This document shows, one piece after another, positions 3,081 through 28,901 of a stretch of 32,000 nt of DNA. The stretch spans positions 960,001 through 992,000 of the forward strand of contig CP013062.1 in the NCBI GenBank assembly GCA_001430755.1. The letters run 5' to 3'. The notes under the pieces were generated by a model that was not told the DNA's origin, made no database searches, and worked only from the letters and a program-made list of their open reading frames with translations. Positions within the stretch are counted from its first letter, which is position 1; each line of letters starts with the position of its first letter. The position numbers and the translations under genes were made by a program. This DNA is from Candidatus Peribacter riflensis. Lineage in GTDB: Bacteria > Patescibacteriota > Gracilibacteria > Peribacterales > Peribacteraceae.

Positions 3081-3086
3081 ATTGGT

Positions 3087-5096: not shown

Positions 5097-5145
5097 GCAT
5101 TGCTCGACGCACACGGAGATTCCGGTATGATGGGCCAACGTCCCC

Positions 5146-6477
5146 ATGAAGCGCACACTCCGCATCGGCCTGATCGTCCTGCTGCCCCTCATCACCCTGT
5201 CGCTCGGCTGGGGATTGGGCGTGCGGTATGCCGAACGCCAGGTGGCCGACATGATGAGCCAGCTCGAATTCCTGTACCAGGGCAAGACCGCGAGCGGAAC
5301 CCTGGTGCACGACCCGGAGAAGGAAGTGGATCTCGCCCTGCTGTGGGGCGTGTGGAGATTGCTGCAGCAGCACTACATCGCTCCGGAAAAGCTGCAAACA
5401 ACCAACATGCTCTTCGGTGCCACTGCGGGCCTCGTGCGCGCACTCGATGATCCCTACACCTCCTTCATGACTCCGCGTGAGAATACTGATTTCAAGGAGG
5501 GTCTGGGTGGCAAGCTCCACGGCATCGGAGCCGAGCTCACCATGAAAGACGGGCAGGTGGTCGTGGTCGCACCGCTCAAGGGATCTCCGGCGCAGGAAGC
5601 AGGCCTGCTGCCCGAAGACATCATCATCGAGGTGAATGGCACCGACATCAGCAACGAAACGCTCACGAATGTCGTGCAGCGCATTCGCGGCCCCAAGGGG
5701 ACCTCCGTCACCCTCACCCTCCTGCGCGCCGATCAGCCGGATGCATTTGAGCTGACCATCAAGCGCGCCGATATCACCATCCCCAGTGTGGAAGCAGAGG
5801 TGCACCAGACCGCCAGCGGTGCCGTCGGCGTCATTGCCCTCAATCAATTCGGAGATGAGACCGTGCAGGAAGTGGAGAAAGCCCTCCGGGACCTGCAGAA
5901 GGAGAAGGAACCAATTCAGGGGCTCGTCATCGACTTGCGCTTCAACGGCGGCGGCTATCTCGACGGTGCTGTGGAGCTCGCGTCACTCTTTCTCAAACAA
6001 GGAAAGGTGGTCACCGTGCAACGCCGCGAAGGTGAGCCGGTGGCTCACTACGTGAACGGCCGCCCACTCGAAGCGGAGCTGCCGCTGGCCGTCCTTATCA
6101 ATGCCGGCTCTGCATCGGCCTCAGAGATCTTCGCCGGCGCGATTCAGGATCACAAGCGCGGCACGATTGTGGGTCAAACGAGCTTCGGCAAGGGCACCGT
6201 ACAAGAAGTCTTCGATCTGCCCGGCGGCAGCAGCCTGCGCGTCACCGTAGCCCGCTGGCTCACCCCGGGAGGCAAAGATTTGAGCAAGGAGGGCATTCAT
6301 CCGGATATCGAAGTGGATCGCACGCCCGAAGACAGCGCGGCAGACAGAGACCCGCAACTCGATACCGCCATGGAGTGGCTGCTCGAACATGGGCAACCGG
6401 GCACGACCGTGGAGCCGGATACGATGGAAAAGGCTCCGCTCCCCAAGCAGGCAGGCAAAGAGATCGAGAGTGAGTGA
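5146..6477 (+). CDS. ctpA: Carboxyl-terminal processing protease (peptidase S41) with PDZ domain
   Basis: 443 aa. N-terminal TM helix, a PDZ-like GIGAEL...VVAPLKGSPAQEAGLLPEDIIIEVNG, and the S41 core GLVIDLRFNGGGYLDGAVELASLFL...NAGSASASEIFAGA. Confidence 0.9.
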   Translation: MKRTLRIGLIVLLPLITLSLGWGLGVRYAERQVADMMSQLEFLYQGKTASGTLVHDPEKEVDLALLWGVWRLLQQHYIAPEKLQTTNMLFGATAGLVRALDDPYTSFMTPRENTDFKEGLGGKLHGIGAELTMKDGQVVVVAPLKGSPAQEAGLLPEDIIIEVNGTDISNETLTNVVQRIRGPKGTSVTLTLLRADQPDAFELTIKRADITIPSVEAEVHQTASGAVGVIALNQFGDETVQEVEKALRDLQKEKEPIQGLVIDLRFNGGGYLDGAVELASLFLKQGKVVTVQRREGEPVAHYVNGRPLEAELPLAVLINAGSASASEIFAGAIQDHKRGTIVGQTSFGKGTVQEVFDLPGGSSLRVTVARWLTPGGKDLSKEGIHPDIEVDRTPEDSAADRDPQLDTAMEWLLEHGQPGTTVEPDTMEKAPLPKQAGKEIESE

Positions 6478-8455: not shown

Positions 8456-8517
8456 CCCGCCCGAACGTACCGTTGTTCGGTACGGGCGGGGCTCCACCTT
8501 TGTCGCGACAAAGGTGG
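8456..8517. terminator. Two tandem strong hairpins (terminator-like, no clear U-tract)
   Basis: Hairpin A: CCCGCC..CGTACCG-TTGTT-CGGTACG-GGCGGG (8456-8490). Hairpin B: perfect 24-nt palindrome CCACCTTTGTCGCGACAAAGGTGG (8494-8517). They lie in the middle of a divergent intergenic gap. Confidence 0.3.
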
Positions 8518-8888: not shown

Positions 8889-9206
8889 ATGTCGTCCCTC
8901 CTCCACCGCCTCTCAGCCATCCTCTTCTACCTCCTCGCCGGAAGTTTCTTTATAAGTTATCTGCTCCTCAGAAACGAAATCGGCCTCCCCTGGTCGGAGT
9001 GGTGGCTCAAGGTCGCCGATCTGCCGCTGGCGCTCGTCGCCGTCGTCTACGGAGGAACAAGCCTCTACCGCAGCGTGAAACACCGGGAAGGGGTGTCATG
9101 GCTGCTCCTCGTGCTGCTCGGCCTCCCACTGCTCGCGTTCTTCACCTTTCTCGTCGCCTTGAACTTCTGGAATATCCTGGGGTTGCCGCAGGGACCCGCA
9201 CTCTAA
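8889..9206 (+). CDS. Small integral membrane protein (3 predicted TM helices), function unknown
   Basis: 105 aa from ATG 8889. Hydrophobic segments LSAILFYLLAGSFFISYLLL, LPLALVAVVYGG and WLLLVLLGLPLLAFFTFLVALNFW. GC-rich third positions. Confidence 0.6.
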   Translation: MSSLLHRLSAILFYLLAGSFFISYLLLRNEIGLPWSEWWLKVADLPLALVAVVYGGTSLYRSVKHREGVSWLLLVLLGLPLLAFFTFLVALNFWNILGLPQGPAL

Positions 9207-9949
9207 ACCTCCACCTCCATAGTCTCCTCCTGCCGGTTCGCGACCCGCGCGGCAAGGAAGAGGCAGTCGCTCAGACGGTTTAAATACACCAGCACATTCG
9301 TATTGACCATTTGACCCTCCGAAACCGCATCCGGAATGGAGGACTGTGAAGAATCCGTGAATGAGCGCGCGAAGCGTTGGGTCTCGCGGGCCCCAACGCT
9401 GGAGCGCAACCGTTGAGGGAAAGGGGTGCCCATGAGGGGAAAACCGGCTTGTCGGCCGTAGCCTTGGCGAAGGCTGAAGGTTTGTCCCTCATGATTCATT
9501 CCCACCACCCATCGCTCGGCGCGTCGGCAGACGGCACGCGCCTGATGCAGGAGTGCCGCGATTTTCGATCCTCCGGGCAGGATGAAGCGCGAGAGTTTCG
9601 GGAGTGAACGCTCCATTGTCAGCCCCCACTCTTCCAGCTCCCGGATGAACAGAACAGAGAGTCGACTTGCCGGCTGTAGTCCACCAGAGGCGGCCGAAGG
9701 CTGGTGACCGCTCGAAACCGATGCGAGATCCGCCCCTGCACTGAAAAGTGCACGCTGCACTCGCTCCAGCGCCGTTCGAAGATCATCAGACAAGGCCGTC
9801 TCGGCCATAATCACACCCAGAATGGCATTGAGCTCATCCAGGCTCCCCACTGCATGAATACGTATGGCAGATTTAGATACGCGCTCGCCCTTGAGAAGAC
9901 CGGTCATTCCATCGTCGCCCGTGCCAGTGGAGATGCGCGGCCGCGCCAT
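9203..9949 (-). CDS. PduO/MMAB-type ATP:cob(I)alamin adenosyltransferase carrying a ~57-aa insertion
   Basis: Family motifs TGTGDDGMTGLL.GERVSKS..RIHAVGSLDELNA, FILPGGSKIAALLHQARAVCRRAER and YLNRLSDCLFLAAR. At 248 aa it is longer than the ~190 aa usual for the family. Confidence 0.85.
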   Translation of the reverse strand: MARPRISTGTGDDGMTGLLKGERVSKSAIRIHAVGSLDELNAILGVIMAETALSDDLRTALERVQRALFSAGADLASVSSGHQPSAASGGLQPASRLSVLFIRELEEWGLTMERSLPKLSRFILPGGSKIAALLHQARAVCRRAERWVVGMNHEGQTFSLRQGYGRQAGFPLMGTPFPQRLRSSVGARETQRFARSFTDSSQSSIPDAVSEGQMVNTNVLVYLNRLSDCLFLAARVANRQEETMEVEV

Positions 9950-9980: not shown

Positions 9981-10040
9981 CCGAGTTCCCTAGTTCCCGA
10001 TTTCCCGCGTTCCCTACGCCCTACCCCCTACCCCTAACCC
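9981..10040. repeat. One-armed C3-tract tandem repeat (CCNNNTTC x4, then CCCTA-type units)
   Basis: Eight C3+ tracts on the + strand at 9988, 9996, 10004, 10012, 10019, 10024, 10031 and 10038. It spans the pheT stop codon (10014-10016). Positions 9981-9999 are the exact reverse complement of 24189-24207. Confidence 0.85.
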
Positions 10041-12374
10041 TATCTTCTCGTGCTCCTTCTTCACCTCCTCCTCCGTAAGCGTGCGGTCAGAAGCACGGTA
10101 CGTGCAGCGCACCGTCAGGTTGTACTGGCCTTTCGCCAGCTTGGCCCCCTCAAAGAGATCCACAACGGAAACATCGGCCAGCAGAGAGGAGCTCTTGCGC
10201 ACCTTTGCGAGGAAATCCGCACTCTTGTGCCCGGCATCCAGCGTGACCGTCAGGTCATACGCGATGGATGGATACTGCGCGATCGGCGAGAAGATCACGG
10301 GTTTCTCGGGCAGAGCGAGCAGACTGGTGAGATCGAGCAGCGCCACGGCCGCGCGTCCCGGCAGATCGAATGCCGAACAGACGGACGGATGTAATTCGCA
10401 GACGAGGCCCATCGCTTTGCCTTCAATGAGAAAGTCTGCGCTGCGCCCCGGGTGCCCGAAGGGAGGTGTTTTCTCAGACGCGCGTATCTCGATGGAAAGT
10501 CCGCTGCCCCCGATCTCGTCTGCAACGAGTTGTTTGAGCGTCAAAAACGGTGTCTCAGAAAGCGGCAGGTTCCGGCGCTCAGCCATAAAGATGCCGCACT
10601 CCAGCCATTCCCCTTCGCGTTCATTGAACACATGGGCGCACGTGAATGTGCGCACGGCGTCCCCCACGAGCAGAAGATTCTGTGCGGCATGCTCGAGTAA
10701 ACGCGGCAGGGTGGATGTCTGGAGCACGCTCAATTCCTCTCCGAGGGCATTGAGCACGGGAAGGGCATCGGAGGGCTCCATACCGGCCTTCTTGAGTAAG
10801 ACCGGGCCGACGAGCGAGAGCGAAACGACCTCCATGAACCCCTGCGACTGCAGGCTGTCACGAAGCTTTGAAACACGCGATTCGCGGGGAGGCGGCGTCA
10901 CAGTTGCTTCGGGATAGGCAGGAGCGATGTGCTCGTATCCGGAAATGCGGCCGATCTCTTCGGTGAGATCATGCGGACCCGTGAGGTCCTTGATCCGCCA
11001 GAGCGGCGGCGTGACCGACCCGCGCGTCACCGTGCACCCCAGATCGGTGAGGATCTTCTTCGCGGTCTTCTCTGCGATTGCCACGCCGAGCAGGTGCTCC
11101 GCATCTTTGTAGGAGAAATGAATGGGCTTCACCGCACCGTCCGTCCCCCATGATTGCAGCTTCGAGGTGATCTGCGCACCGGGAATAAGGGTGAGGAAGA
11201 GTTCCAGGGCCCGCATCAATCCCTCTTCGCAACGAACGGGCGGAACGCTTTTTTCGTAGATGGTCGCCGCATCCGTGCGATGCCCGGTGGCAATGACCGC
11301 ATTGCGGATGGCAACGGCATCGACAACGGGACTGTGCAGGTAAATCTCGCGCGTCTTTTCGGTGGTGGAGGTTCTCAGGCCTCCCATGATCCCCATGAGA
11401 TCGAAAATACCGGCATCATCACTCATCACCACAGCACCAGCGGGAAGGACGCGCTCGACGGAATCGAGCGTTTGGATCTTCTCCCCCTCTCTAGCCGCGC
11501 GGATGTGCACCGCACCTCTGAAATCCTTCAGATCGAAACTGTGGAGCGGCATGCCCAGTTCTGCAGTGACGTAATTAGTGATATCGATCGGCAGATTGAG
11601 CGGCCGGAAACCGGCAGAGAGAAGGCGTCGCTTCATCCATGCAGGAGTCTCGCCGAGGCCGGAAATGCGCAGCGTGCATCCGCAGTACCGCGGAACGAGT
11701 TTCTTCTGTTCCACAACACTCTCGAAGGGAAGCGCCCCTTTGGGGAACGCGAGTGCCTTTTTCTTCGCAGGCTTCTTCCACACCGCTAATCCCAATGCCA
11801 CGCATTCCCGTGCGAACCCGATTTGCGAGAACAGATCCGGACGATGTGTAATGGCATGGTTATCGACGTGCAGGATGGCATCGGTGAGACCGAGGTATTC
11901 CCGGAGTGATGTTCCCACACCGTCAGTGCCATCCCCCAGATCCACGATGGCGTGCCCCGTCGCCGTGGGGAACAGGTGCTCGAGCTGCAATTCCTCTGCA
12001 GCACAGATCATGCCTTCGCTCTCTTCCCCGCGGATCTTGGTCTTCTGGAGCGTCACCATCCCCTCACCATGCCACTTCACCTGTGCCCCCACGTGCGCGA
12101 ACGCCACGCGCATGCCCGTGCGCAAATTCGTCCCGCCGCAGACCACGCGCTTGGTACCCTGATCGGTTTGCACATCGCAGAGCGAGAGACGGTCGGCATT
12201 CGGGTGTTTTTTCAGAGAGAGGACTTTCCCCACACAACACCCCGTTAGCGGCGCTCCCTGCTCCTCGATCTCCTCCACTTCACCCGTCGCCACGGTCAGG
12301 CGATTGGCAATGACCCGTGGGTCTTTCTCTTTCCACGAAACGAACTCCGAGAGCCATTCGAGTGAAACTTTCAT
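10014..12374 (-). CDS. pheT: Phenylalanine--tRNA ligase beta subunit
   Basis: 786 aa from ATG 12374 (MKVSLEWLSEF...). N-terminal tRNA-binding OB domain (GKVLSLKKHPNADRLSLCDV), B3/4 and B5 regions and a C-terminal anticodon-binding-like domain. The length is typical. Confidence 0.9.
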   Translation of the reverse strand: MKVSLEWLSEFVSWKEKDPRVIANRLTVATGEVEEIEEQGAPLTGCCVGKVLSLKKHPNADRLSLCDVQTDQGTKRVVCGGTNLRTGMRVAFAHVGAQVKWHGEGMVTLQKTKIRGEESEGMICAAEELQLEHLFPTATGHAIVDLGDGTDGVGTSLREYLGLTDAILHVDNHAITHRPDLFSQIGFARECVALGLAVWKKPAKKKALAFPKGALPFESVVEQKKLVPRYCGCTLRISGLGETPAWMKRRLLSAGFRPLNLPIDITNYVTAELGMPLHSFDLKDFRGAVHIRAAREGEKIQTLDSVERVLPAGAVVMSDDAGIFDLMGIMGGLRTSTTEKTREIYLHSPVVDAVAIRNAVIATGHRTDAATIYEKSVPPVRCEEGLMRALELFLTLIPGAQITSKLQSWGTDGAVKPIHFSYKDAEHLLGVAIAEKTAKKILTDLGCTVTRGSVTPPLWRIKDLTGPHDLTEEIGRISGYEHIAPAYPEATVTPPPRESRVSKLRDSLQSQGFMEVVSLSLVGPVLLKKAGMEPSDALPVLNALGEELSVLQTSTLPRLLEHAAQNLLLVGDAVRTFTCAHVFNEREGEWLECGIFMAERRNLPLSETPFLTLKQLVADEIGGSGLSIEIRASEKTPPFGHPGRSADFLIEGKAMGLVCELHPSVCSAFDLPGRAAVALLDLTSLLALPEKPVIFSPIAQYPSIAYDLTVTLDAGHKSADFLAKVRKSSSLLADVSVVDLFEGAKLAKGQYNLTVRCTYRASDRTLTEEEVKKEHEKIGLGVGGRA

Positions 12375-12499
12375 GGCAGGAGCATAGCCTAACCCCTCAA
12401 GGGGCGGTAGGAATGTCACCGCAACAGCAAGGGATTCTGTGGGGGATTGTGCGAAGGGCGGGACGCGCCTAGCGTATTGGGGTCTTTTTCCCTCACTCT

Positions 12500-12736: not shown

Positions 12737-12835
12737 TTGTGTCACCCTGCCTGCCCGCCGAAGCTTCAGCGAAGGCGGGAGCGTAGTCGAAGGGCGACAC
12801 GCTCCGATTCATGGTTCGACTACGCTCACCATGAC
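12737..12835. repeat. GC-rich palindromic repeat element with interleaved stems, upstream of tRNA-Ser
   Basis: Four stems are visible. GTGTCACCC/GGGCGACAC. CCCGCC/GGCGGG (12754-12779). GCGTAGTCGAA/TTCGACTACGC. TCATGGT/ACCATGA. The 26-nt CCCGCC hairpin recurs at 26649-26674 with 23/26 identical. Confidence 0.7.
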
Positions 12836-14301: not shown

Positions 14302-15261
14302 TCAGACTTCGGGCAGCGTGTCGGTCCGTTCCGGCGGGTGGATGAATGTAAAACCCAAGGCTTTGTAGATATCTTCCTCTTCGCGTGAGGCAATCACCTT
14401 TTCACCGTGAAAAAGCCCGTACTCATTGAGCTTCCACCCGCGCTGAATCGCCTTTTTTCGGAGCATGATGTTGTGTCCTTTATCCCCCGTGAAGTACAGC
14501 AGGGCGGCTCCCCACTGATCGCGCCGGACGAAGCGGATATCGACTCGGATGCCGGCCTGAAGATCGAACGAGAGCTTCTTTTCACCGTGCGCCACAACAT
14601 CCCGGACCATCGGGAGCTCTGCGATGGCATCACTCACGGCCTTCGCTGACTGTGTGACGACCAGCACGTCAATATCGCCCACAGTCTCCTTCTCGCGACG
14701 AAAAGAACCGGCCACCTCGCACTGTTCGATGCCTTGTACACCCCGGATTTTCCTGAGGAGCGCGGCCACATCGTCTTTCACCTCCTCACGCGGAAAGCGG
14801 CGCATGCGTTCTGTCACACGCCTGGCGTTCTCGAGTACCTTCGCCTGCATGGTTGCGGAAAAACCGGGAAGACCCTTCAGCTTTCCCGTTTCGGCAGCCT
14901 TGATCAGATCGGCAACCGACTGGATGCCCAATGCCATCTGAAGTTGTCGGGCGCGCTTGGGTCCAAGCCCCTCCACTAAAATGAGCGCAGGAGGGATACC
15001 GCCCTGCGCACCGAGGAGCTTATCGAGCGCGGCGATGCGGCCGGTCTGCAGGTACTCCTGAATCTTCCTGGCGATGCTCTCGCCGATCCCGGGGAGTGCC
15101 TCCAGTTGCTCGATATCTTTGAACGCGGAGACATCGCGCTTCAGTTCTTCGAGGATTTTTGCCGCATGACGGTACGCCGCGGGCTTGAAGGCCACCCCCT
15201 GCTCCTCGAGCAGGGCGGCGATCTGATGCAGAAGCATGGCGATGCGCGCGTTGTTCTCCAC
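14302..15261 (-). CDS. Family X DNA polymerase (Pol beta-like core only, no PHP domain)
   Basis: Helix-hairpin-helix motifs LPGIGESIARKI and VEGLGPKRARQL. Catalytic acidic motifs GSFRREKETVGDIDVLV and GIRVDIRF. Thumb GWKLNEYGLF. GTG 15261 gives the N-terminus M-ENNARIAMLLHQIAALLE typical of PolX. ATG 15342 lies inside a 13-bp hairpin stem. Confidence 0.8.
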   Translation of the reverse strand: MENNARIAMLLHQIAALLEEQGVAFKPAAYRHAAKILEELKRDVSAFKDIEQLEALPGIGESIARKIQEYLQTGRIAALDKLLGAQGGIPPALILVEGLGPKRARQLQMALGIQSVADLIKAAETGKLKGLPGFSATMQAKVLENARRVTERMRRFPREEVKDDVAALLRKIRGVQGIEQCEVAGSFRREKETVGDIDVLVVTQSAKAVSDAIAELPMVRDVVAHGEKKLSFDLQAGIRVDIRFVRRDQWGAALLYFTGDKGHNIMLRKKAIQRGWKLNEYGLFHGEKVIASREEEDIYKALGFTFIHPPERTDTLPEV

Positions 15262-15317
15262 AAGACAACAGGATACCAATGTAGGAAGTGATCCGCCTCC
15301 CCGATTTTTTTGATTAT

Positions 15318-15347
15318 CCCGGGTGCATGCCTCTGCATGCACCCGGG
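15318..15347 (-). terminator. Perfect 13-bp hairpin downstream of the L28-like gene
   Basis: CCCGGGTGCATGC-CTCT-GCATGCACCCGGG. It is flanked by a T7 run on the + strand, which is an A run on the - strand, so orientation is ambiguous. Confidence 0.45.
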
Positions 15348-15401
15348 GAAATGGGTTTGGCTCAAGCCGAAGCTTAAGCCGAAATGGAACAGGTCTCGCG
15401 A

Positions 15402-15665
15402 TCAGGCGATCCGCACATTATAGCGGTCACGCAGCCGGTTGGCCCGGAGATTGAGAGCATCGACAGCTCCACATGCCTGCACGTAAGGTTGACCGCGACG
15501 CTTGGCTCGGTTGACCTTACGTTTGAGAACTCGCGCGCAGTTGGCCAGGTAGATAGTCACCCGCCTGCGCTCCGTGTGGACCCGACGGGTCCGCAGGCGT
15601 CTATGCAGACGCCGATCGTCCTTCAGTTCTGCCACGACTTCCGAATCATGAGTTCGGCATACCAT
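15402..15665 (-). CDS. Small highly basic protein, possibly ribosomal protein bL28
   Basis: 87 aa with GGAG 9 nt upstream of the ATG. Loose resemblance to L28: early Cys, the H-RRLRTRR block versus SH..TKRR, and NCARVLKRKVNR versus SARALKSGKVER of Bacillus L28. The match is weak. Confidence 0.4.
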   Translation of the reverse strand: MVCRTHDSEVVAELKDDRRLHRRLRTRRVHTERRRVTIYLANCARVLKRKVNRAKRRGQPYVQACGAVDALNLRANRLRDRYNVRIA

Positions 15666-15849
15666 AGCTCACACTCCATCGAAGACCTGAAGCCTTCCGG
15701 GAAACCTACTCATCCACACTCCGGCAGATAAGCACTCCCAGGGGGGAGCAAAGGGTCGCCCATTCCAATGGGCAAGGAAGGCAGATCACTTTCTGAATGC
15801 AAACAATGATGTGAAGGAGCGTGTGTGATCTCTGATCTGTTCAAAGAAT

Positions 15850-15878
15850 GGAGCTGCCGTCGCGCGGGCGGCAGCTCC
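15850..15878 (-). terminator. Hairpin terminator of the microprotein gene
   Basis: GGAGCTGCCG-N9-CGGCAGCTCC lies 13 nt after the stop codon. On the minus strand it is followed by ATTCTTTG. Confidence 0.5.
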
Positions 15879-15891
15879 GAAAGAGAGGCGG

Positions 15892-16002
15892 TTAGCGGGA
15901 ACCGCGGCGGCACCGCTTTCGCGGCGCCTTTTTGGCACCATCCTTGCAGGAACACTTCTGCAGGATGTGCCCACACCGTGAGCACCTAATTTTGCGGCTC
16001 AT
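15892..16002 (-). CDS. 36-aa Cys-rich, strongly basic microprotein (zinc-knuckle-like)
   Basis: MSRKIRCSRCGHILQKCSCKDGAKKAPRKRCRRGSR. It has the best Shine-Dalgarno sequence in the window (GGAGAAAGGAG, 6 nt before the ATG) and its own downstream hairpin. Confidence 0.55.
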   Translation of the reverse strand: MSRKIRCSRCGHILQKCSCKDGAKKAPRKRCRRGSR

Positions 16003-16326
16003 GGTAACTCCTTTCTCCTGCTCTTCCTTTATGAGCAGGTCAGAGATCATAGTGGAATGAAAGATCAGGGAAGCACCCACTCTCTTTGAGGAGAGAAGGA
16101 TGCGCATCATTCTACGGGGTTTCCTTCACGCGCCCTTCTCTGCTGTAAGGCAGGGAATGGAAAACGGGCGGAGGACGTACTGCTGCAGCATGACAGAAGG
16201 TAATGTAAACATTACATCCCCGCCTGTCAAGAATGATCTGAATAGGCCATTGGAACTGCATCCTGTTCGATAAAACACAAACATAACCGGTTCGAAACAA
16301 AACAGCATACAAAAATCTACGGAAAC

Positions 16327-16412
16327 GCGCCTATGTGGCGGCGATAGCGGAGGGGGTCATAGGCGCAGCGCTTTCTTTCGTCCTTTCTTTGTCGCGCCTG
16401 ACAAAGAAAGGA
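16327..16412 (-). terminator. Two tandem hairpins downstream of ahcY
   Basis: GCGCCTATG-N22-CATAGGCGC (16327-16366) and TCCTTTCTTTGT-N8-ACAAAGAAAGGA (16381-16412). The second shares the CTTTGTCGCG...ACAAAG core with the 8494-8517 palindrome. Confidence 0.45.
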
Positions 16413-16445
16413 CAAGAATGAATAGTGCAGTAGAACATGAGCAAC

Positions 16446-18793: not shown

Positions 18794-18878
18794 AGGGAAC
18801 TCGGATTCGGGAATGAGGGAACTAGGTTCGTTTTTCAGGCCGATTTCCCTATTTCCCGAGTTCCCCATTTCCCTATCC
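18794..18878. repeat. Two-armed tandem-unit inverted repeat in the divergent pfkB/ugd promoter region
   Basis: Left arm AGGGAACTCGGATTCGGGAATGAGGGAACTAGG. Right arm CGATTTCC-CTATTTCC-CGAGTTCC-CCATTTCC-CTATCC (8-nt period). GGGAACTCGG (18795-18804) is exactly complementary to CCGAGTTCCC (18856-18865). Four C3+ tracts lie at 18847-18873. Confidence 0.85.
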
Positions 18879-20885: not shown

Positions 20886-21833
20886 ATGAAAGTTCTCCTC
20901 ACTGGCTCCGCCGGCTTCATCGGATTCCACACGGCCAAAGTGCTCCTCGCCCGCGGCGACGAGGTGATCGGGCTGGATAACTTCAATCCGTACTACGACC
21001 CCAAGCTCAAAGAGGATCGCAATGCGCAACTGATCAAGGATAAAAAGTTCACCCTCATCCGCGGCGATATCTGCGATCGCAAGACCGTCGCCAAGGCGAT
21101 GAAGGGCTGTGACCGCGTCTGTCACCTCGCGGCACTCGCAGGCGTGCGCTACGCCTTCGACCATCCGGACGAGTACATCGATATCAACATCCGCGGGTTC
21201 TTCAATGTGCTCGAGGAGGCGCGGCTGCAGAAGATTCCCGGCTTCATCTACGCATCATCGAGCTCCGTCTACGGCGGCAATACCAAGATGCCGCTCGCCG
21301 AGACCGATCGCACCGATAACCAACTCTCGCTCTACGGCATGAATAAGAAAGATAACGAGCTCATGGCGCACGTGTACCACTCGCTCTACGGCATTCCGGT
21401 GACGGGGCTGCGGTTTTTCACTGTCTACGGCCCCTGGGGCCGCCCCGATATGGCGCTCTTCGAGTTCACGGATGAGGTTTTGCACGATCGCCCACTCGAT
21501 ATCTTCGGGCACGGTAAAATGCAGCGCGACTTCACCTACATCGACGATATTGTCTCTGGAGTCGTGGCCTCGCTCGACAAGAACTATCCCGAAGAGGTCT
21601 TCAATTTGGGATGCGGTAAGACGGAAGAACTGATGGATTACGTGAAAGGCATCGAACAGGCTTGCGGAAAAGAGGCGAAGAAAGAATTCCTTCCCATGCA
21701 ACCGGGCGATGTGGTGCGCACGGAGGCGGATATCGCGAAAGCGAGGAAGATGCTGGGCTTCAGCCCCAAGACACAGATCAAAGACGGCATCCCGAAGTTC
21801 GTTGAATGGTATCGCAAGTACTACGACCTTTAG
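20886..21833 (+). CDS. UDP-glucuronate 4-epimerase (NAD-dependent epimerase/dehydratase, extended SDR)
   Basis: 315 aa. MKVLLTGSAGFIGFH, NFNPYYDPKLKEDR, SSSSVYG, YGMNKKDNELMAHVY (YxxxK) and RFFTVYGPWGRPDMA are typical of the Cap1J/LpsL-type UDP-GlcA epimerase group. Confidence 0.85.
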   Translation: MKVLLTGSAGFIGFHTAKVLLARGDEVIGLDNFNPYYDPKLKEDRNAQLIKDKKFTLIRGDICDRKTVAKAMKGCDRVCHLAALAGVRYAFDHPDEYIDINIRGFFNVLEEARLQKIPGFIYASSSSVYGGNTKMPLAETDRTDNQLSLYGMNKKDNELMAHVYHSLYGIPVTGLRFFTVYGPWGRPDMALFEFTDEVLHDRPLDIFGHGKMQRDFTYIDDIVSGVVASLDKNYPEEVFNLGCGKTEELMDYVKGIEQACGKEAKKEFLPMQPGDVVRTEADIAKARKMLGFSPKTQIKDGIPKFVEWYRKYYDL

Positions 21834-21930
21834 GGATTAGGGGTTGGGGATTAGTGTATTAGGAAACCTTGAAAAGAAGGTTTTTATTTGGCCCTAATCC
21901 CCAAGATTCCAATCCCTCATCCCTCATCCC
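21832..21930. repeat. Two-armed G3/C3-tract inverted repeat between convergent genes
   Basis: Left arm AGGGATTAGGGGTTGGGGATTAG starts inside the TAG stop of the epimerase. Right arm CCCTAATCCCC...CCCTCATCCCTCATCCC contains the TGA stop of the GT-C gene (minus strand). GGGGATTAG is complementary to CTAATCCCC. Confidence 0.85.
21864..21889 (+). terminator. Rho-independent terminator nested at the centre of the repeat
   Basis: AAACCTT-GAAAAG-AAGGTTT followed by TTATTT. Confidence 0.6.
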
Positions 21931-23128
21931 TTAGTAACGGTCTCACCCACACCTCCACCGGAACGTTCTCAAGCCGTTGCCAGCCCTCCCGCTTACGCAC
22001 ATCCGGGCAATCGGCAAGACACACGGCGATACGCGCGGAATCGATGAGGTGATAATTCGTCACATATCGACGGATGAGGTAGGGACCAGCCTCCTGCCAT
22101 TCGTGTCCGAAGGACCCTGCAATAATCGCTGTCGCCCCGACGGGTACGTTGGCCGCCTGTGCCTGCGCAAAGACCGCCGGAGCCGGAGAGGGCTGACTGC
22201 GGGGATAGGCGAACGGAATGAGAATGAAGCCACAGAGGAGCGATGAGAGTACGACCATCGCAGGCCGACGCATCAATGCCGGCGCTGAAGCCAAACCGGC
22301 AACGAGGAGCGGAGCGAAGAGGATGGCATAGTACGGCCGGAACGAGACGAAGATGAACAGGCCGACGAGCAGCAGGCTCGCCACAAGTGACCAGCGCCGC
22401 GACAGGACCATGCCGAGCGTGCCGAGGACGCTCAAGACCAGGCTCCCACCGAGCACCCAGAGCCACACCGTGCCGCGAAGAGCGAAAATCATCGTCCCGC
22501 CATCTAGATTCTGCCGCCCTGCCGTCACCATGCTCGCGAATGTCAGAGGATTGGTTGCGGTGTAGAGGAGGAGCAGAAGTATGGGACCGAAAAGACCGGA
22601 AAGACGCTGCCACTTGGGTAAGCGCATGCGCCAGAACACGACGGCCACCACCGGGAAGAAGAGGATCGCCTGATAGGCCGTGAAGAGAGAGGCCATCCAG
22701 AGGAGTGCCACCCACCCGATCATGGGCTCAAGTTCTTCGCCTTTGAGGAGCCAGTAGCAGAAGACCAGCATCTGCAGGGCCGTAATGGGAGCGAGGAGGA
22801 TTTGCCCGGCAGAGACAAAGACGCCGGCGGAGAGCACCCACAGGCTCATGAGGAGCAGGGGGGATGACGGCACGTGTTTGGGAGCGAGACCGCGCGAAAT
22901 CCACGCCGCCTGCAAAAGTGAAACGGCGAGGACAATGCGCCAGAGATACTCCTGCCCCGGAATCCACTGCGTCAGACCTATGAACCAGCGTGCGAGCGGG
23001 GGATGAGGATAGGGAATGTTGAGCAGATATTTCGCCTCATCGGTGGTCACCCCATGCCAGACATGGAGCACTGCCAGCACGACAGCGAGCAGCAGGAGGC
23101 CGAAGGCGGGATTTATAAAGCGTCGCAT
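21917..23128 (-). CDS. Polytopic membrane glycosyltransferase, GT-C fold (ArnT/PMT/GT39-like)
   Basis: 403 aa from ATG 23128 with roughly 10 hydrophobic helices. An acidic motif in the first external loop (TTDEAKYLLNIPYPHPPL) is typical of GT-C enzymes. It overlaps the stop of the upstream GT2 gene by 16 nt. Confidence 0.65.
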   Translation of the reverse strand: MRRFINPAFGLLLLAVVLAVLHVWHGVTTDEAKYLLNIPYPHPPLARWFIGLTQWIPGQEYLWRIVLAVSLLQAAWISRGLAPKHVPSSPLLLMSLWVLSAGVFVSAGQILLAPITALQMLVFCYWLLKGEELEPMIGWVALLWMASLFTAYQAILFFPVVAVVFWRMRLPKWQRLSGLFGPILLLLLYTATNPLTFASMVTAGRQNLDGGTMIFALRGTVWLWVLGGSLVLSVLGTLGMVLSRRWSLVASLLLVGLFIFVSFRPYYAILFAPLLVAGLASAPALMRRPAMVVLSSLLCGFILIPFAYPRSQPSPAPAVFAQAQAANVPVGATAIIAGSFGHEWQEAGPYLIRRYVTNYHLIDSARIAVCLADCPDVRKREGWQRLENVPVEVWVRPLLRDEG

Positions 23129-24102
23129 GGGGACCAGGCGAAGTATTCGAATCCGACGCGGATACACCGCGCGGATACATTGGATCGTCCGTGAGGATGG
23201 TGTATGAGCTCGATACGCGTAGATTCAACACGACGGAGAGAAAGATCTGAAATGAGCCACCCTTCTGTATCGGAGAGCGATTGCATCGCCGCTCTCGTTC
23301 GATCACGCACTTGCGGGTCGAGCACGAGGAGTCGCAAATGCCACGCGCGCACCGAAAGGAAAATCCCAATTCCGATGATGAGGATAAGAAAGAGCACCCA
23401 AGCGACACGCGCCCACCGATGCAGAAAGAGCGAAAGCAGTGAGCAACCGAAATCCCACTGCACGCTGAGCGAAAGTTTGCTCGTGCCCACCGCGCGCGGC
23501 GCGAAGGTGTAGGGAATCTCCGTGACGGGGGTGCCGCGCGGCAACCGCATGAGAAGATCGAACAGGATCTTGAAACCGCGGGGATGGAACTGCGGCGCAA
23601 TCCGCTCGAAGAGCGAACGATCGATGGCAAAGAAGCCGCTCATGGGATCGCGCACGGACAGGCGACAGAGCAGGGTGGTCACCTTCGTGCCCACACGGCT
23701 CAGGAGGGTGCGGCGGCGGTTCCACTGTCCCGTGCTCCCGCCTGCGATGTAGCGCGAAGCCACGGCAACCCCCCGACGAACCTGTACGGTCTCGACGAGT
23801 TTCTTTAAGAGGGAGGCATCGTGCTGCCCGTCGGCGTCCATCACGGCAAGAATCTCGCCGCGCGCCGCTTTGAACCCCTCCACGACTGCCGAGGAAAGCC
23901 CGCGCTCCCCGCGCCGCCTGATCACCCGGAGTGACGGAAATGACGTCTGCAATTCCTCCGCCTTGCGCCAGGTGCCGTCCGGTGAATCATCGTCGACAAT
24001 GATGATCTCATGCGGCATTCCCGTGAGCGCCGTTGCGATGCGCGGCAGCAGAACCGGCAGACTTTCCGCCTCGTTGTACGTGGGAATAATAAGCGACAAC
24101 AT
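23113..24102 (-). CDS. Polyprenyl-phosphate glycosyltransferase, GT2 (Dpm1/ArnC/GtrB-like) with C-terminal TM segment
   Basis: 329 aa from ATG 24102. LIIPTYNEAESL, IIIVDDDSPDGT, VMDADGQHD (DxD region) and RDPMSGFFA, followed by the TM helix VAWVLFLILIIGIGIFL. Confidence 0.85.
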   Translation of the reverse strand: MLSLIIPTYNEAESLPVLLPRIATALTGMPHEIIIVDDDSPDGTWRKAEELQTSFPSLRVIRRRGERGLSSAVVEGFKAARGEILAVMDADGQHDASLLKKLVETVQVRRGVAVASRYIAGGSTGQWNRRRTLLSRVGTKVTTLLCRLSVRDPMSGFFAIDRSLFERIAPQFHPRGFKILFDLLMRLPRGTPVTEIPYTFAPRAVGTSKLSLSVQWDFGCSLLSLFLHRWARVAWVLFLILIIGIGIFLSVRAWHLRLLVLDPQVRDRTRAAMQSLSDTEGWLISDLSLRRVESTRIELIHHPHGRSNVSARCIRVGFEYFAWSPCDAL

Positions 24103-24152
24103 CAGGAGGCAGTGTAGCGAGTAGGAGTGATTGATGTCAGCGATTTCCTCAA

Positions 24153-24258
24153 GGGAATTAGAGAACGAACGGTTAGGGAATTCGGGTGCGGGAACTAGGG
24201 AACTCGGCTTATTTTCCATTCCGGTTACACTAATTCCCGACTTCCCTATTTCCCTCAT
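24153..24258. repeat. Two-armed tandem-unit inverted repeat in the divergent GT2/SDR promoter region
   Basis: Left arm has four G3 tracts, GGGAATTCGGGTGCGGGAACTAGGG (24176-24200). Right arm is CTAATTCC-CGACTTCC-CTATTTCC-CTCATC. It shares exact blocks with the 9981 and 18794 copies. Confidence 0.85.
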
Positions 24259-24286
24259 CACTGTTCAAGGGCAAACTACCAGCTGT

Positions 24287-25192
24287 ATGAAGATCCTCGT
24301 CACTGGATCCTCCGGCACGATCGGCACGCACCTCTGCGCAAGGCTCCTGGAGTTGAAACAAGACGTGGTTGGGGCAGATTGGGAGCCGAATAAGTGGCAA
24401 CCAACGGTCGAGAAACTCACCGTGCGCTTGGACCTGCGGCATGAAGAGGAACTGAAGAAGCTTCCCACGGATTTCGACTGTGTGATCCATCTCGCCGCCA
24501 ACGCGCGCGTCTACGAGCTCGTGGAACACCCCGACCGGGCACGCGATAATATCATGAGCACATTCAATACGCTGGAATGGGCGCGCAAAAACGGAATCAA
24601 GCGCTTCGTCTTCGCCTCTTCGCGCGAGACGTACGGTAACAGCGGAGCGGCTCAGTACACCGAAGACATGGTACGGGTCGAGAACTGCGAGAGCCCCTAC
24701 ACCGCAAGCAAGATCGCCGGTGAGGCGCTCGTGGAATCGTACCGGCGCTGCTACGGCATGGAGACGGTGATCGTGCGTTTCTCGAACGTGTACGGCATGT
24801 ACGACGACTCTGAGCGTGTGGTGCCGCTCTTCATCCGTCAGACCAAGAAGAATGAACCGCTCGTCGTCTTCGGTAAAGATAAGAGCCTGGATTTCACGTA
24901 CATCGACGATGCGGTGGACGGACTCTTGCTCATCCTGAAAAATTTCGCGAAGGCGAACGGTCAGACCATCAATCTCGCCTTCGGCGAGGCGCACCCCATC
25001 ATGGAACTGGCGGAACTCATCAAGAAACTCATGGGAAGCACCTCCGCCATCACAGCGAAAGATTCCCGCACGGGCGAAGTGACCCGCTACACGGCGGATA
25101 TTTCGAAGGCGCGCACGATCCTCGGCTTCGACCCCAAGGTGCCCTTCGCGGAGGGAGTGAAGAAGTCGGTGGAGTGGTATGGACGAGAATGA
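24287..25192 (+). CDS. NAD-dependent epimerase/dehydratase (extended SDR)
   Basis: 301 aa from ATG 24287. MKILVTGSSGTIGTHL glycine-rich loop, catalytic YTASKIAGE (YxxxK), and a typical length. The substrate cannot be inferred. Confidence 0.8.
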   Translation: MKILVTGSSGTIGTHLCARLLELKQDVVGADWEPNKWQPTVEKLTVRLDLRHEEELKKLPTDFDCVIHLAANARVYELVEHPDRARDNIMSTFNTLEWARKNGIKRFVFASSRETYGNSGAAQYTEDMVRVENCESPYTASKIAGEALVESYRRCYGMETVIVRFSNVYGMYDDSERVVPLFIRQTKKNEPLVVFGKDKSLDFTYIDDAVDGLLLILKNFAKANGQTINLAFGEAHPIMELAELIKKLMGSTSAITAKDSRTGEVTRYTADISKARTILGFDPKVPFAEGVKKSVEWYGRE

Positions 25193-25260
25193 TGAATAAG
25201 GAATTATGACTGAAGTATCTTTTCCTTCATTCTTCATTCTTAATTCTTAATTCTTACTTC
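25187..25260. repeat. A/T-rich heptamer version of the two-armed repeat between convergent genes
   Basis: Left arm is GAATGAT-GAATAAG-GAATTAT-GACTGAA. Right arm is CTTCATT-CTTCATT-CTTAATT-CTTAATT-CTTACTT. Both stop codons (TGA 25190-25192; TAA on the minus strand at 25247-25249) lie inside the arms. Confidence 0.75.
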
Positions 25261-26983
25261 TCGTCTCGTGATAGACCATTTCCAGATTCACCTCCCACAC
25301 ATTGGATGAATCGGTGCGGCCTGCGACGATGTTATCCACGGCCGTCATCGAGGTGAGCATGCTGTGGTCCTGATTGTTGTAGCGGTGCATGCCGTTTCTG
25401 CCGATCAGGTAGAGATTGGGGACACTCTGGACGAATTCCCGGACAACGTGGAGCTGATCGTAACTGCCGAAGTATGCGGGATACGCCTTGGGCATTCTGA
25501 GCACGCACGCGTCGATGACATCCTCGCTCTTGAGAAAGTGGATCTTCTCCATCTCGCCGATGCCGAATTGGATGAGCTCCTGATCGGGCTTGATCCACAG
25601 GTCCCCGCCCTCGTTCACAAAGTACTCCAGCCCGATCCACACCGCATTCTTGCGATCGGCCACAAGGTAGGGACTCCAGTTATTGAAGATTTGTACGCGT
25701 CCCACCCGCACTCCCCCCTCCTGAATGTAGATCCAGTTATCCGGCACTGATGCATCGGTATGTCTGCCATCCTGCACGTGAAGTTTTTTCAGCAGGAGAC
25801 CGATCGTGATGAAATCGCGGTACGGCAAGCCTTCCGCCACCTCCACGACTCGCGCAGGCGGATGCGGCGTCATCATGCCAATGAGATGCTTGATCGGCAT
25901 GGTGGAGAAGAAAAAATCGCACGGAATGGTCTCTTCGGTGCCCGTTTGCGTGTTTTCGAGTGTGACGGAAGTGATGCGGCCGTCTGTGAGATGCACACCC
26001 GAAACGCGCGTGCGCATGCGCACTTCACCGCCGCACGACTTCACCTGAGCCGCAACGGTCTCCCACATCTGTCCGGGCCCGTACTTGGGGTAGAAGAAGC
26101 GCGTGATGAGCGTGGTTTCGCGCTCCTGCTGGGCTTTTTTGAAATCACTGCTCAGAAGATCCTTCACGGCGTGAACAACGGCGCGCCGGAGTGACAGCCC
26201 CTGCACGCGCTGGGCGCCCCAATCCGCGCGAATTTGGCTGCAGGGAATCCCCCACACTTTTTCGGTGTAATCGCGGAAGAATGTCTCGTAGAGGCGGCGC
26301 CCGAAGCGGTTGACGAAGAAAGCATCGAGGTAGGTTTCGTCTTTGAGCCGGAACACACGCGCTTTGAGGTAGCTCAAACCGATCAGGAATGTGTTGGCGA
26401 TCCCCAACCGCAGGGCAACACGCAGAGTGATGGCGATGGGATACGGAAAGAAGTGTCTGCGATGGTAGATGCGGCTGAGTCTGGGCCGCTGGAGCATGAC
26501 CTGATCTTCCTTTTCGGGATCGGGGGCGGGACGACGAATGACGGGGGACTTGGGACTTGGGACTTGGGACTTGGGATCTGAACCTGAATCTTTTTCGAAG
26601 CCTAAGTCCTCTGTCCTCTGTCCTAAGTCCTGTACACACTCCGGCTTGCCCGCCGAAGCCTCGGCGCAGGCGGGACATAAATATTCCACCACCGCCTCTG
26701 CCGCATAATCAATCTCATGCTGCTTCTCGACCGTATCCGCAGCGGGCGCACCCTGCAGCGGCAGGATATTGAACCACCACTGCATGATCCGCTTGCTCTT
26801 ACTGAAAAATCTGTGTCCTCCCAGATCGATGCGGTTGCCTTTGTAGTTGAAGGTTTGGGCGATACCGCCGATGGCATCGGTCGCCTCGCAGACAATCGGG
26901 CGGATATCCGTACGCTTGAGAAGCTCGTAGGCAGCCGTGAGCCCCGCGGGACCGGCACCGGCAATAATGGCAACCCTAGACAT
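25247..26983 (-). CDS. FAD/NAD(P)-binding oxidoreductase (amine-oxidase / UDP-galactopyranose-mutase-like fold) with repeat-derived internal insertion
   Basis: 578 aa. N-terminal dinucleotide-binding motif [18 protein letters not shown]...GGIA...GGHRFF. Conserved blocks [23 protein letters not shown] and [12 protein letters not shown]. Confidence 0.8.
26543..26674. repeat. Intragenic composite repeat: GGGACTT x4 arm, TNNGTCC x4 arm, plus a CCCGCC...GGCGGG hairpin
   Basis: Perfect heptamers at 26545-26572, with a degenerate fifth copy to 26579. Right arm TAAGTCC-TCTGTCC-TCTGTCC-TAAGTCC ends at 26632. A 26-nt hairpin at 26649-26674 is 23/26 identical to 12754-12779. All of this is translated in frame as ...[43 protein letters not shown]... 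Confidence 0.85.
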
Positions 26984-27530: not shown

Positions 27531-28814
27531 ATGCTACACTTGCCCATGATGAAGAAGCCGGTGATCTGCATCGTGGGACTCGGCTACGTGGGCCTGCCGC
27601 TCGCGTACATCTTCGCGAAGAAAGGTTTCGACGTGCACGGGTATGACCTGAATGCCGAGCGCATCGCGGAGCTGAAGGCCGGCCATGACCGCACGCGGGA
27701 GCTGACGGAGAAGCAGTTGAAAGAGGCGACCATCCGGTACAGCGCCGATCCCGCATCCATCCACGAAGCCGATGTCGTGATCCTGGCGATCCCCACGCCC
27801 GTGGATGAGCGGAATACCCCCGATCTCACTCCTGTGAAGAGCGCCAGCTCTACGGTCGGCAAACACATGAAGAAAGGTGCCATCATCGTGTACGAATCCA
27901 CCGTATGGCCGGGCACGACGGAGGAGATCTGCGGCCCGATCCTGGAAAAGGAATCGGGGATGAAATGCGGCATCGACTTTAAGTTGGGCTACTCCCCCGA
28001 GCGCGTGAACCCGGGTGACAAGGAGCACACGATCGAGAAGATCAGAAAGATTGTCTCGGGGCAGGATACTGAAACGCTCGAGACACTCGCCGATCTGTAC
28101 GGCTCCGTGATCGACGCGGGGATTCATCGTGCCGCGAATATCAAGGTGGCCGAAATGGCCAAGGCCATCGAGAACGCACAGCGGGATCTGAACATTGCCT
28201 TCATCAACGAAGTGGCGCTTCTCTGCCATAAAGTGGGCATCGAGACGAAAGATGTGATCGATGCTGCTGCTACCAAATGGAATTTCCTCAGGTTCCTGCC
28301 AGGCCTCGTGGGCGGGCACTGCATCGGAGTAGATCCGTACTACTTAGTCGAGAAAGCGCGCCAGCTTGGTATGCAAACGCAGGTCATCACGGCCGGCCGC
28401 GCCCTCAATGACGCAATGAGCCGCCACGTCGCGGAACAGGCGACAGAAGAACTGAAGGGCACGAAGAGCCCACGCGTACTTGTGCTGGGCTTAACCTTCA
28501 AAGAGAACATCCCCGACACCCGCAACAGCAAGTCCGGTGACGTGGTGAAGCAACTGCAGAAACTCGGCTGTTCTGTAGAAGTGCACGATCCCTACATGCC
28601 AGAGGAAGTCATGCTCAAGAAAGGATGGAAATTGGGCTCTCTGCAATCAGGCCCCTACGATGCCGTGGTGCTCCTGGTCCCGCACCGGGAATACATGACA
28701 GATCTTTCAGCCCTGACCAAAGCCCTGAAGCCCAAAGGACTTCTCTACGATCTCAAAACAATCCTGCCGCGAAAGGAGATTGAGGGGAAAGGTCTGCGGT
28801 ATAAGGCACTTTGA
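27531..28814 (+). CDS. Nucleotide-sugar dehydrogenase, TviB/WbpO/CapL type (UDP-N-acetylhexosamine 6-dehydrogenase)
   Basis: VICIVGLGYVGLPLA, PTPVDERNTPDLTP, YESTVWPGTTEE, GYSPERVNPGDKEH, KVAEMAKAIENAQRDLNIAFINE and LVGGHCIGVDPYYL closely follow the TviB/WbpO family pattern. Alternative starts at 27546 and 27549. Confidence 0.88.
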   Translation: MLHLPMMKKPVICIVGLGYVGLPLAYIFAKKGFDVHGYDLNAERIAELKAGHDRTRELTEKQLKEATIRYSADPASIHEADVVILAIPTPVDERNTPDLTPVKSASSTVGKHMKKGAIIVYESTVWPGTTEEICGPILEKESGMKCGIDFKLGYSPERVNPGDKEHTIEKIRKIVSGQDTETLETLADLYGSVIDAGIHRAANIKVAEMAKAIENAQRDLNIAFINEVALLCHKVGIETKDVIDAAATKWNFLRFLPGLVGGHCIGVDPYYLVEKARQLGMQTQVITAGRALNDAMSRHVAEQATEELKGTKSPRVLVLGLTFKENIPDTRNSKSGDVVKQLQKLGCSVEVHDPYMPEEVMLKKGWKLGSLQSGPYDAVVLLVPHREYMTDLSALTKALKPKGLLYDLKTILPRKEIEGKGLRYKAL

Positions 28815-28901
28815 GGGTTAGGGTTAGGGTTGGGAAAGATGAACTATCTCTTGAAGAAACTCAAACCCAGTCTCAGCCCTAACCCTATCCCTAACCCTAT
28901 C
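28813..28901. repeat. Telomere-like (GGGTTA)n / (CCCTAN)n two-armed inverted repeat between convergent genes
   Basis: GGGTTAGGGTTAGGGTTGGG at 28815-28834 starts 1 nt after the TGA stop (28812-28814). CCCTAACCCTATCCCTAACCC at 28877-28897 adjoins the TAG stop of the methyltransferase (minus strand, 28897-28899). The arms are about 19/21 complementary. Confidence 0.9.

Follow-up and report, generated by a model that had tools for sequence, protein, structure and literature searches.

The window analysed here comprises 32,000 nucleotides (nt) of contig CP013062.1 from the genome of Candidatus Peribacter riflensis, an uncultured groundwater bacterium of the candidate phyla radiation (CPR) that belongs to the phylum Peregrinibacteria. 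This text deals with two hairpin-forming repeat elements that lie side by side inside one of its genes, which encodes an oxidoreductase dependent on flavin adenine dinucleotide (FAD) and NAD(P); the reading frame stays open through both elements (Table 1). The protein shows a distant match to the eukaryote-type UDP-galactopyranose mutase among the PDB entries (4u8k/3ute, E = 1e-15), and its sequence is that of ALM10297.1 and of three more accessions from Candidatus Peribacter riflensis genomes of 1.25 Mb. The neighbours of the gene form a surface-glycan cluster, including GtrA, two UDP-glucose dehydrogenases, epimerases, glycosyltransferases of the families 2 (GT2) and 4 (GT4) and a methyltransferase. 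The gene map of the window is built on open reading frames (ORFs) with Pfam support; a greedy ORF map was discarded as unreliable at a GC content of 58.6%. The repeats named in the paper on the Peribacter genome are a single direct repeat region and some short repeats close to the origin of replication; hairpins of the present kind are unmentioned (PMC4736985). A preliminary description of the locus had placed both repeat elements in frame within the FAD oxidoreductase gene and had proposed four perfect heptamers as a possible phase-variation switch. Its statements on the sequence hold throughout and the translation reads as quoted there; the proposed switch is weighed further below.

Table 1. 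Location and build of the host gene, its loop and the hairpin elements. Positions refer to the window; L numbers denote contigs on which related or comparable elements were found.
Feature	Position	Strand	Units or build	Evidence
Host gene, 578-aa FAD/NAD(P)-dependent oxidoreductase	25247-26983	minus		Pfam Amino_oxidase and NAD_binding_8
Hypervariable protein loop hosting both elements, residues ~102-152	26530-26680	minus	between LCPxC and PAPDPEKED	alignment A1
Large hairpin, G-rich arm	26543-26582	+	GGGACTT x4 perfect, then GGGATCT	Tandem Repeats Finder, pattern search, sequence
Large hairpin, loop	26583-26600		sequence and length differ among copies	folds, alignment A2 of five copies
Large hairpin, degenerate complementary arm	26601-26632	+	CCTAAGT CCTCTGT CCTCTGT CCTAAGT CC	repeat and complementarity search
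Small hairpin insertion, ~30 nt	26643-26674 (hairpin 26649-26674)		CCCGCC GAAGCCTCGGCGCA GGCGGG	comparison with L081
Intergenic copy of the small hairpin, near-identical	12754-12779	+	CCCGCC...GGCGGG	2 window matches vs 0.11 expected
Large-hairpin copy, same FAD oxidoreductase site, 86% identical orthologue	L081/L082		4 + 4 units, one substituted, longer loop	nhmmer
Large-hairpin remnant, same FAD oxidoreductase site	L083		1 + 2 units	nhmmer
Large-hairpin copy inside Peribacteraceae GT2 glycosyltransferase	L147		in frame, same reading frame (EDLGLRTED...SPKSQVPSP)	nhmmer
Large-hairpin copy, intergenic, between 629-aa gene and efp, upstream of efp	L152			nhmmer
Loop hairpin	L086		GAAAAT type	fold z = -2.2
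Loop hairpin	L001		CGGGNN	fold z = -4.4
Loop hairpin	L085		C5/G5	fold z = -0.5
Loop hairpin	L214		GAGACAT / CTCAAAT	fold z = -2.75
Loop hairpin	L215		CAGCGAT / CTGACAG	fold z = -1.9
Loop hairpin	L216		C-rich / G-rich	fold z = -3.9
Loop hairpin	L217		GGTTCAGC	fold z = -4.85
Loop hairpin	L207		CCGAAGT / CCGCTGT	cut by contig end, no fold value
Half-elements, two C-rich arrays	9981-10042		CCGAGTTC x4 and CCCTAC/CCCTAA x5	repeat search
Tandem-unit hairpin between divergent genes	18800-18878		GGGAAnnn and CCCnAnTT	z = -2.9
Tandem-unit hairpin between convergent genes	21830-21935		TTAGGGA type, loop, CCCTAAT/CCCTCAT	z = -4.26
Tandem-unit hairpin between divergent genes	24150-24262		GGGAATT/GGGAACT	annotated as N-terminus of the GT2 gene
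Tandem-unit hairpin across the stop codons of FAD oxidoreductase and convergent epimerase	25182-25265		GAATAAG / CTTAATT x5.3	z = -3.2
Tandem-unit hairpin between convergent genes	28814-28900		(AGGGTT)3 GGG, loop, (CCCTAA/CCCTAT)4	z = -3.5

Build of the two elements and selection for an open frame

Read on the coding strand, the G-rich arm of the large element appears as CCCAAGT x4 and encodes 11 residues, and the degenerate arm appears as GACTTAG GACAGAG GACAGAG GACTTAG and encodes 10. Tandem Repeats Finder reports the unit GGGACTT with a period of 7, 4.6 copies and 100% matches at 26545-26576, and the doubled unit GGGACTTGGGACTT, with up to two mismatches allowed, is matched four times in the window, every time inside the heptamer array (0.05 matches expected). 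The segments 26546-26582 and 26594-26630 are 70% complementary, and both arms together form a single extended hairpin (z = -4.0 for DNA, z = -3.0 for RNA) that is equalled by none of 200 shuffles and that ranks first in a sliding 100-nt fold over all 32 kb (z = -4.38). Folded as RNA, the antisense strand reaches -48.4 kcal/mol and the mRNA sense -32.2 kcal/mol; the strands differ because G-U pairs on one of them are A-C mismatches on the other. An Rfam scan returned only a tRNA above threshold, and the element itself gave only sub-threshold noise from miRNA hairpins. The + strand of the array carries five G3 tracts with 4-nt spacers, as had been described before; these had been assigned to the non-template strand, but the + strand is the template of this minus-strand gene, and it is the C-rich CCCAAGT units that are found in the mRNA and on the non-template DNA. 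The G-rich strand thereby holds a predicted G-quadruplex (G4) motif, with which the complementary arm would compete through formation of the hairpin.

The unit length of seven makes the reading frame sensitive to changes in unit number. With one heptamer unit fewer the frame runs into a stop at codon 198, and with one more into a stop at codon 282, in agreement with the earlier statement that a change by one unit frameshifts the gene; loss of three units keeps the frame. A tract of (CCCAAGT)n is free of stops in all frames, and it is this arm that is perfect. A tract of (GACTTAG)n, in contrast, brings TAG into all three frames within three units, and if the perfect complementary arm is restored in silico, TAG appears at codon 125. 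The offending units are altered to GACAGAG or GACATGG in the window gene and in each of two further in-gene copies, one in an orthologue (L081) and one in a glycosyltransferase (L147). Mutation exactly where TAG would be in frame indicates that an open frame has long been under selection. Such purged stops are unlike what would be expected for a switch that is often in the OFF state.

The small CCCGCC...GGCGGG insertion, an event separate from that of the large element, encodes 10 residues and is in frame as well. The closest orthologue (L081) lacks it, which makes it a discrete gain of 30 nt in the window gene. Its folding depends on the strand, with z = -3.1 for the + strand and z = -0.2 for the mRNA sense.

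Related copies at other loci and the hypervariable loop

The large element belongs to a sequence family. A family profile used with nhmmer detects the copies on L081/L082, L083, L147 and L152 with E = 1e-29 to 1e-38, and in an alignment of the copies (A2) the arms are closely alike among the window, L081, L147 and L152, but the loops are not. These copies occupy three unrelated loci, namely the FAD oxidoreductase gene, a GT2 gene and the region upstream of efp, which points to a dispersed family that is either mobile or recombining. The homologues of the L147 GT2 are proteins of Peribacteraceae and Peregrinibacteria, and its orthologues are without the heptamer element. The mRNA-sense strand has the weaker fold in all three in-gene copies examined (window, L081 and L147), and for the intergenic copy on L152, transcription runs in the stronger-folding orientation. 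Possibly, in-gene copies are retained chiefly in the orientation with the smallest burden on the mRNA, which is a hint rather than a result at two to three independent in-gene insertions.

The contigs L147, L152 and L126 originate from a metagenome scan with (CCCAAGT)x3.3, which was unspecific and returned at least 120 diverse contigs; the FAD oxidoreductase gene was on none of the metagenome contigs among the matches listed, and strain-level copy numbers were not obtained from the scan. L126 stems from an unrelated organism (GC 0.51) and encodes a UvrA with a clean in-frame insert of 28 residues (~3008-3084), which consists of a (GGGACTG)n/(CCCAAGT)n hairpin and which is absent from a solved UvrA (9gxk). 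The phenomenon consequently reaches beyond Peribacteria. A profile of the element peptides found no match in a library of 5.8 billion proteins, for the size of which the profile is too short. As a side observation, about one quarter of 80 examined contigs with CCCAAGT arrays carry a complementary array within 160 nt, and hairpins of the form (CCCAAGT)n-loop-(ACTTGGG)n or (GGGACTT)n-loop-(CCCAAG[TC])n are seen on many unrelated metagenome contigs with GC contents of 0.47-0.69 (L163, L166, L095, L102, L108, L110, L178, L189, L206).

In the FAD oxidoreductase, both elements are located in a loop that ranges from ~6 to ~50 residues in 27 orthologues (alignment A1), which confirms the earlier statement that this segment is variable in related oxidoreductases. 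Homologues from outside Peribacteria are ~50 residues shorter across this region, and the loop is without counterpart in solved UDP-galactopyranose mutases. It is probably disordered; its predicted local distance difference test (pLDDT) values are 27-35 in a model that is poor overall (mean pLDDT 58, from a 27-sequence alignment). Beyond the window family, eight contigs carry tandem-unit hairpins built of different units at the same loop, which amounts to nine overall with about seven unrelated unit sequences, and these hairpins lie no more than a few codons away from one shared CxxC motif. Loci without an insert have fold z values near zero, and L084 and P0003 have no hairpin in the loop. On L086, the unit family of the in-gene hairpin is also present in a nearby intergenic gap. 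Across lineages, self-complementarity and unit periodicity recur at the loop and the peptides differ completely; the encoded peptide, which has no conserved sequence, is probably a by-product. The GT2 family of L147 possesses a hypervariable loop of its own (alignment A4, columns ~236-290) with lineage-specific peptides, observed, L147 apart, at the protein level only, which read like translated palindromes (KDEGERMKDEG...FSSSFPL, WKMENGKWK...HYPLSIIHS).

The two elements are likely to be passengers: small hairpin repeats of dispersed occurrence, copies of which have come to lie in frame within a loop that is hypervariable and lineage-specific and that belongs to a conserved flavoenzyme of a glycan pathway. 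Either a transposition-like insertion or recombination with another copy would have brought the element into the loop, and since additional residues are tolerated there, it would have survived, presumably as a neutral passenger. An open frame would then have been selected for, with the stop-free arm staying perfect and the TAG-bearing arm mutating where TAG would be read. Over evolutionary time, the arms would change by gain and loss of units and by homogenisation, and the element would sometimes be deleted.

Several points weigh against this explanation. The exact family is found in two independent host genes only. Neither a transposase nor a terminal signature or a target-site duplication was found, nor do the copies have common junction motifs; for want of the first three, mobility is deduced solely from the presence of copies at different loci. 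The designation as a surface loop is based on hypervariability and on the missing solved counterpart, since the structural model is poor, and the evidence for stability presented below comes from consensus assemblies of a nearly clonal population. Moreover, different hairpins occupy exactly this loop repeatedly and in many lineages, which might reflect selection for the hairpin at this site instead of mere tolerance.

It is on this point that a selected intragenic structure has to be considered, in which the long hairpin, as mRNA, as a cruciform or as a G4 together with an i-motif, is functional and is kept while its sequence drifts. Such a structure might cause a pause of transcription or translation once the FAD-binding N-terminal module has been passed, or it might set the half-life of the mRNA. 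The nine contigs with hairpins of unrelated sequence next to one motif speak for it, as do the conservation of self-complementarity and periodicity without that of the peptides, the conservation of the arms but not of the loops, and an enrichment of G4-type motifs in the window, of which there are 10 compared to 3.1 +/- 1.8 in shuffles, with seven of the 10 inside tandem-unit hairpins. However, many close orthologues have no hairpin or only a remnant of it (L084, P0003, L083, L003, L006), the mRNA-sense strand folds more weakly in the three in-gene copies and likewise in the small hairpin, and the element has neither an Rfam match nor a terminator-like T run. We consider a selected structure to be unlikely.

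The hairpin might also be of local origin and never have been inserted. It would then have developed at the site itself out of a short palindrome, through slippage of units in one arm and subsequent copying of that arm onto the other by template switching (quasi-palindrome correction), and the similarities among loci would be due to gene conversion or convergence. Such growth would account for unit sequences that differ among lineages at one site and for variant units that are common to both arms, as in the degenerate arm of the window and the 3' arm of L207, both of which alternate AAGT and CTGT units; the missing terminal signature and target duplication fit it too. However, three unrelated loci, namely the FAD oxidoreductase, the GT2 gene and the sequence upstream of efp, have near-identical arms of ~25 and ~30 nt, which are too alike for convergence. 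Furthermore, the in-gene family on L086 matches the neighbouring intergenic element, and the small hairpin is a discrete gain with a second copy 14 kb away. A local origin seems quite improbable to us.

A more general idea, which we regard as possible but doubtful, is that in Peribacteria, and apparently in other bacteria too, fast-evolving heptamer hairpins repeatedly colonise or persist in the same permissive enzyme loops and write lineage-specific peptides there, and that the hairpin rather than the peptide may be selected. If true, these elements would be the CPR counterpart of the Rickettsia palindromic elements (RPEs), with a different build and a possible function at the nucleic-acid level in coding regions, and CPR bacteria with their small genomes would be rich in hairpin repeats that also enter coding regions. 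RPEs are small dispersed palindromes that are found between genes and, in frame and at tolerated positions, in unrelated genes (PMC10969869). The present elements resemble them in that one family is present at several unrelated loci and lies in frame in conserved genes whose orthologues do not have it. In contrast to RPEs, which comprise ~150 bp with conserved family sequences and a conserved peptide, the present elements are ~90 bp long, are composed of tandem 6-8-nt units and vary in sequence between lineages; they have no conserved peptide, are hosted by a CPR bacterium and show no sequence relation or homology to RPEs. The in-frame behaviour of selfish DNA known from Rickettsia would hence be extended to a very different lineage and kind of element, and such hairpin insertions constitute a natural experiment on protein loops that tolerate insertions.

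With respect to the units, the closest likeness is to the G-rich heptamers of Xanthomonas (GGGNATC) and Nostoc (GGGGA(C/T)T, of the short tandemly repeated repetitive type), which have G3-4 tracts and about four units, four being also the modal number, and which are mostly intergenic and often arranged as convergent pairs (Rehm et al., 2015; PMC4692102). Little more than the register separates the window unit GGGACTT from the Nostoc unit GGGGACT. In Xanthomonas, 89-93% of the heptamers are intergenic and a minority is intragenic, and 70-75 convergent pairs per genome are able to form stem-loops; the heptamers of Xanthomonas and Nostoc are not linked to switching (PMC4692102). The study describes these repeats as arrays and treats inverted pairs in passing, whereas nearly every array in our case is paired with a complementary arm; the in-frame coding use and the purging of stops are likewise unlike the repeats as described there (PMC4692102). 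[quoted passage not shown] They differ from these in that no GTAG/CGTC tag, no gene for a REP-associated tyrosine transposase (RAYT), no terminal inverted repeats distinct from the stem and no target-site duplication were seen, and a build from tandem units is atypical of REPs. The tag was absent from the ends of the elements, and none of the 33 ORFs scanned in the window matches a Y1 transposase family.

Allele stability and the question of slipped-strand switching

The preliminary description had compared the array with the contingency loci of Haemophilus, Neisseria and Campylobacter, and the likeness is real in so far as a non-triplet tandem unit lies within the reading frame of a surface-glycan gene and a change by one unit abolishes the product. 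Slipped-strand mispairing at (GGGACTT)4 would accordingly toggle the glycan-pathway enzyme off and on within a population. This reading draws on the unit length, which is not a multiple of three and leads to a truncated protein after a one-unit change, on the position in a surface-glycan cluster together with a glycosyltransferase as the other host of the family, on orthologues that differ in unit number and on the turnover of units described below. The alleles, however, are uniform among the assemblies. The exact 578-residue protein is present in 42 blocks of the collection, and all 23 contigs examined, from NCBI, ENA and JGI assemblies, carry the identical intact allele; four independent assemblies show no nucleotide difference across the gene. 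No frameshifted allele was found in the 90% cluster; it has only two other members, which are shorter because their contigs stop within the element. Copy number, the invariance of which had been proposed as the refuting observation, is thus invariant at the assembly level, and the comparison of orthologues revealed 4/4, 4/4 and 1/2 units, all of them in frame.

The tract itself, with 4.6 units, is far shorter than those of characterised contingency loci and, by their standard, not long enough for high-frequency slippage; in nature, the heptamer switch upstream of hmw in Haemophilus influenzae comprises at least 11 units (PMC12721329). A size of four units is the modal one of this class of repeats genome-wide, for which no switching role is seen (PMC4692102). 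Moreover, the repeat is not specific to the gene that would be switched: its family is also found in the GT2 gene and between genes, its architecture recurs in intergenic gaps of the window, it represents one arm of a kind of hairpin that is common in the window, and the same architecture is present in housekeeping genes unrelated to surface glycans (PduO, UvrA). Length polymorphism among close strains is absent at the assembly level, and the complementary arm carries the marks of long-term open-frame selection described above. The reading as a contingency switch is therefore unsupported at the assembly level and unlikely; we give it very little weight, and rapid switching would appear to be absent. 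More generally, a frameshift-prone repeat in a glycan gene is insufficient for calling a contingency locus, as here it is the arm of a common element in a gene that is stably intact.

Changes in the units do occur on a longer time scale. In a strain that is ~93% identical, the 3' arm on L207 reads CCGAAGT CCGCTGT x2, with every unit altered alike, and this uniform change, together with the unit differences at the species level, points to turnover of units over evolutionary time. Seven Logan contigs of this strain, among them L207-L209 (positions 1-35), end inside the element, and so does P0017, an NCBI contig of the strain of the window. These ends were considered as a sign of length heterogeneity and were discounted because inverted and tandem repeats are expected to break de Bruijn assemblies anyway.

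Hairpins of the same architecture in the rest of the window

Hairpins of the same build, in which a G-rich arm with about four units of 6-8 nt is followed by a loop and by a complementary arm rich in C, recur in at least six gaps between genes of the window. The genes that flank them are convergent, divergent or co-directional, and the strongest folds of the window are mostly intergenic (Table 1). The C-rich half-elements overlap pheT (10014-12419, minus) at its final codons and its stop and have no clear complementary arm nearby. The elements were also considered as intrinsic terminators, and this was rejected because they lack T runs and some of them lie between divergent genes; a terminator scan of the window gave nine terminator-like sites (10.1 expected), none of which coincides with a hairpin element.

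Coding regions other than the FAD oxidoreductase are touched as well. The PduO-type adenosyltransferase (9203-9949, minus) has ~60 extra in-frame residues at 9311-9493, the DNA of which folds as several hairpins (for example CATGAGGGACAAACC...GGTTTTCCCCTCATG), and solved structures have nothing that corresponds to this insertion (2zhy, chain 139 to 143). The GT2 gene at 23113-24261 (minus) is annotated publicly with 381 residues, of which the first ~52 are encoded by the adjacent hairpin; its Pfam domain begins at residue 56 and the orthologue on L081 comprises 329 residues. Either its start is miscalled or the hairpin element is read as an N-terminal extension. Since the start of this GT2 and some contig breaks fall at hairpin elements, gene calling is affected by them.

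Some minor observations concern further folds and genes of the window. A region of ~1 kb (15384-16445) contains no Pfam-supported gene and gave no match to Rfam, and four of the strongest folds of the window lie in it (15821, 15906, 16131, 16356). The window also encodes an RNase H/RVT_3-like protein (4470-5285, minus) and a DNA polymerase of family X (pol beta-like; 14302-15342, minus), whose link to repeat dynamics would be pure speculation. Finally, a hairpin GTCCTTTCTTTGTC...GACAAAGAAAGGAC is located at different loci in two Peribacteria genomes (window 16375-16412, L084 3975-4015), and with a related core, CCACCTTTGTCGCGACAAAGGTGG, at ~8490-8515 of the window it looks like another dispersed hairpin family.

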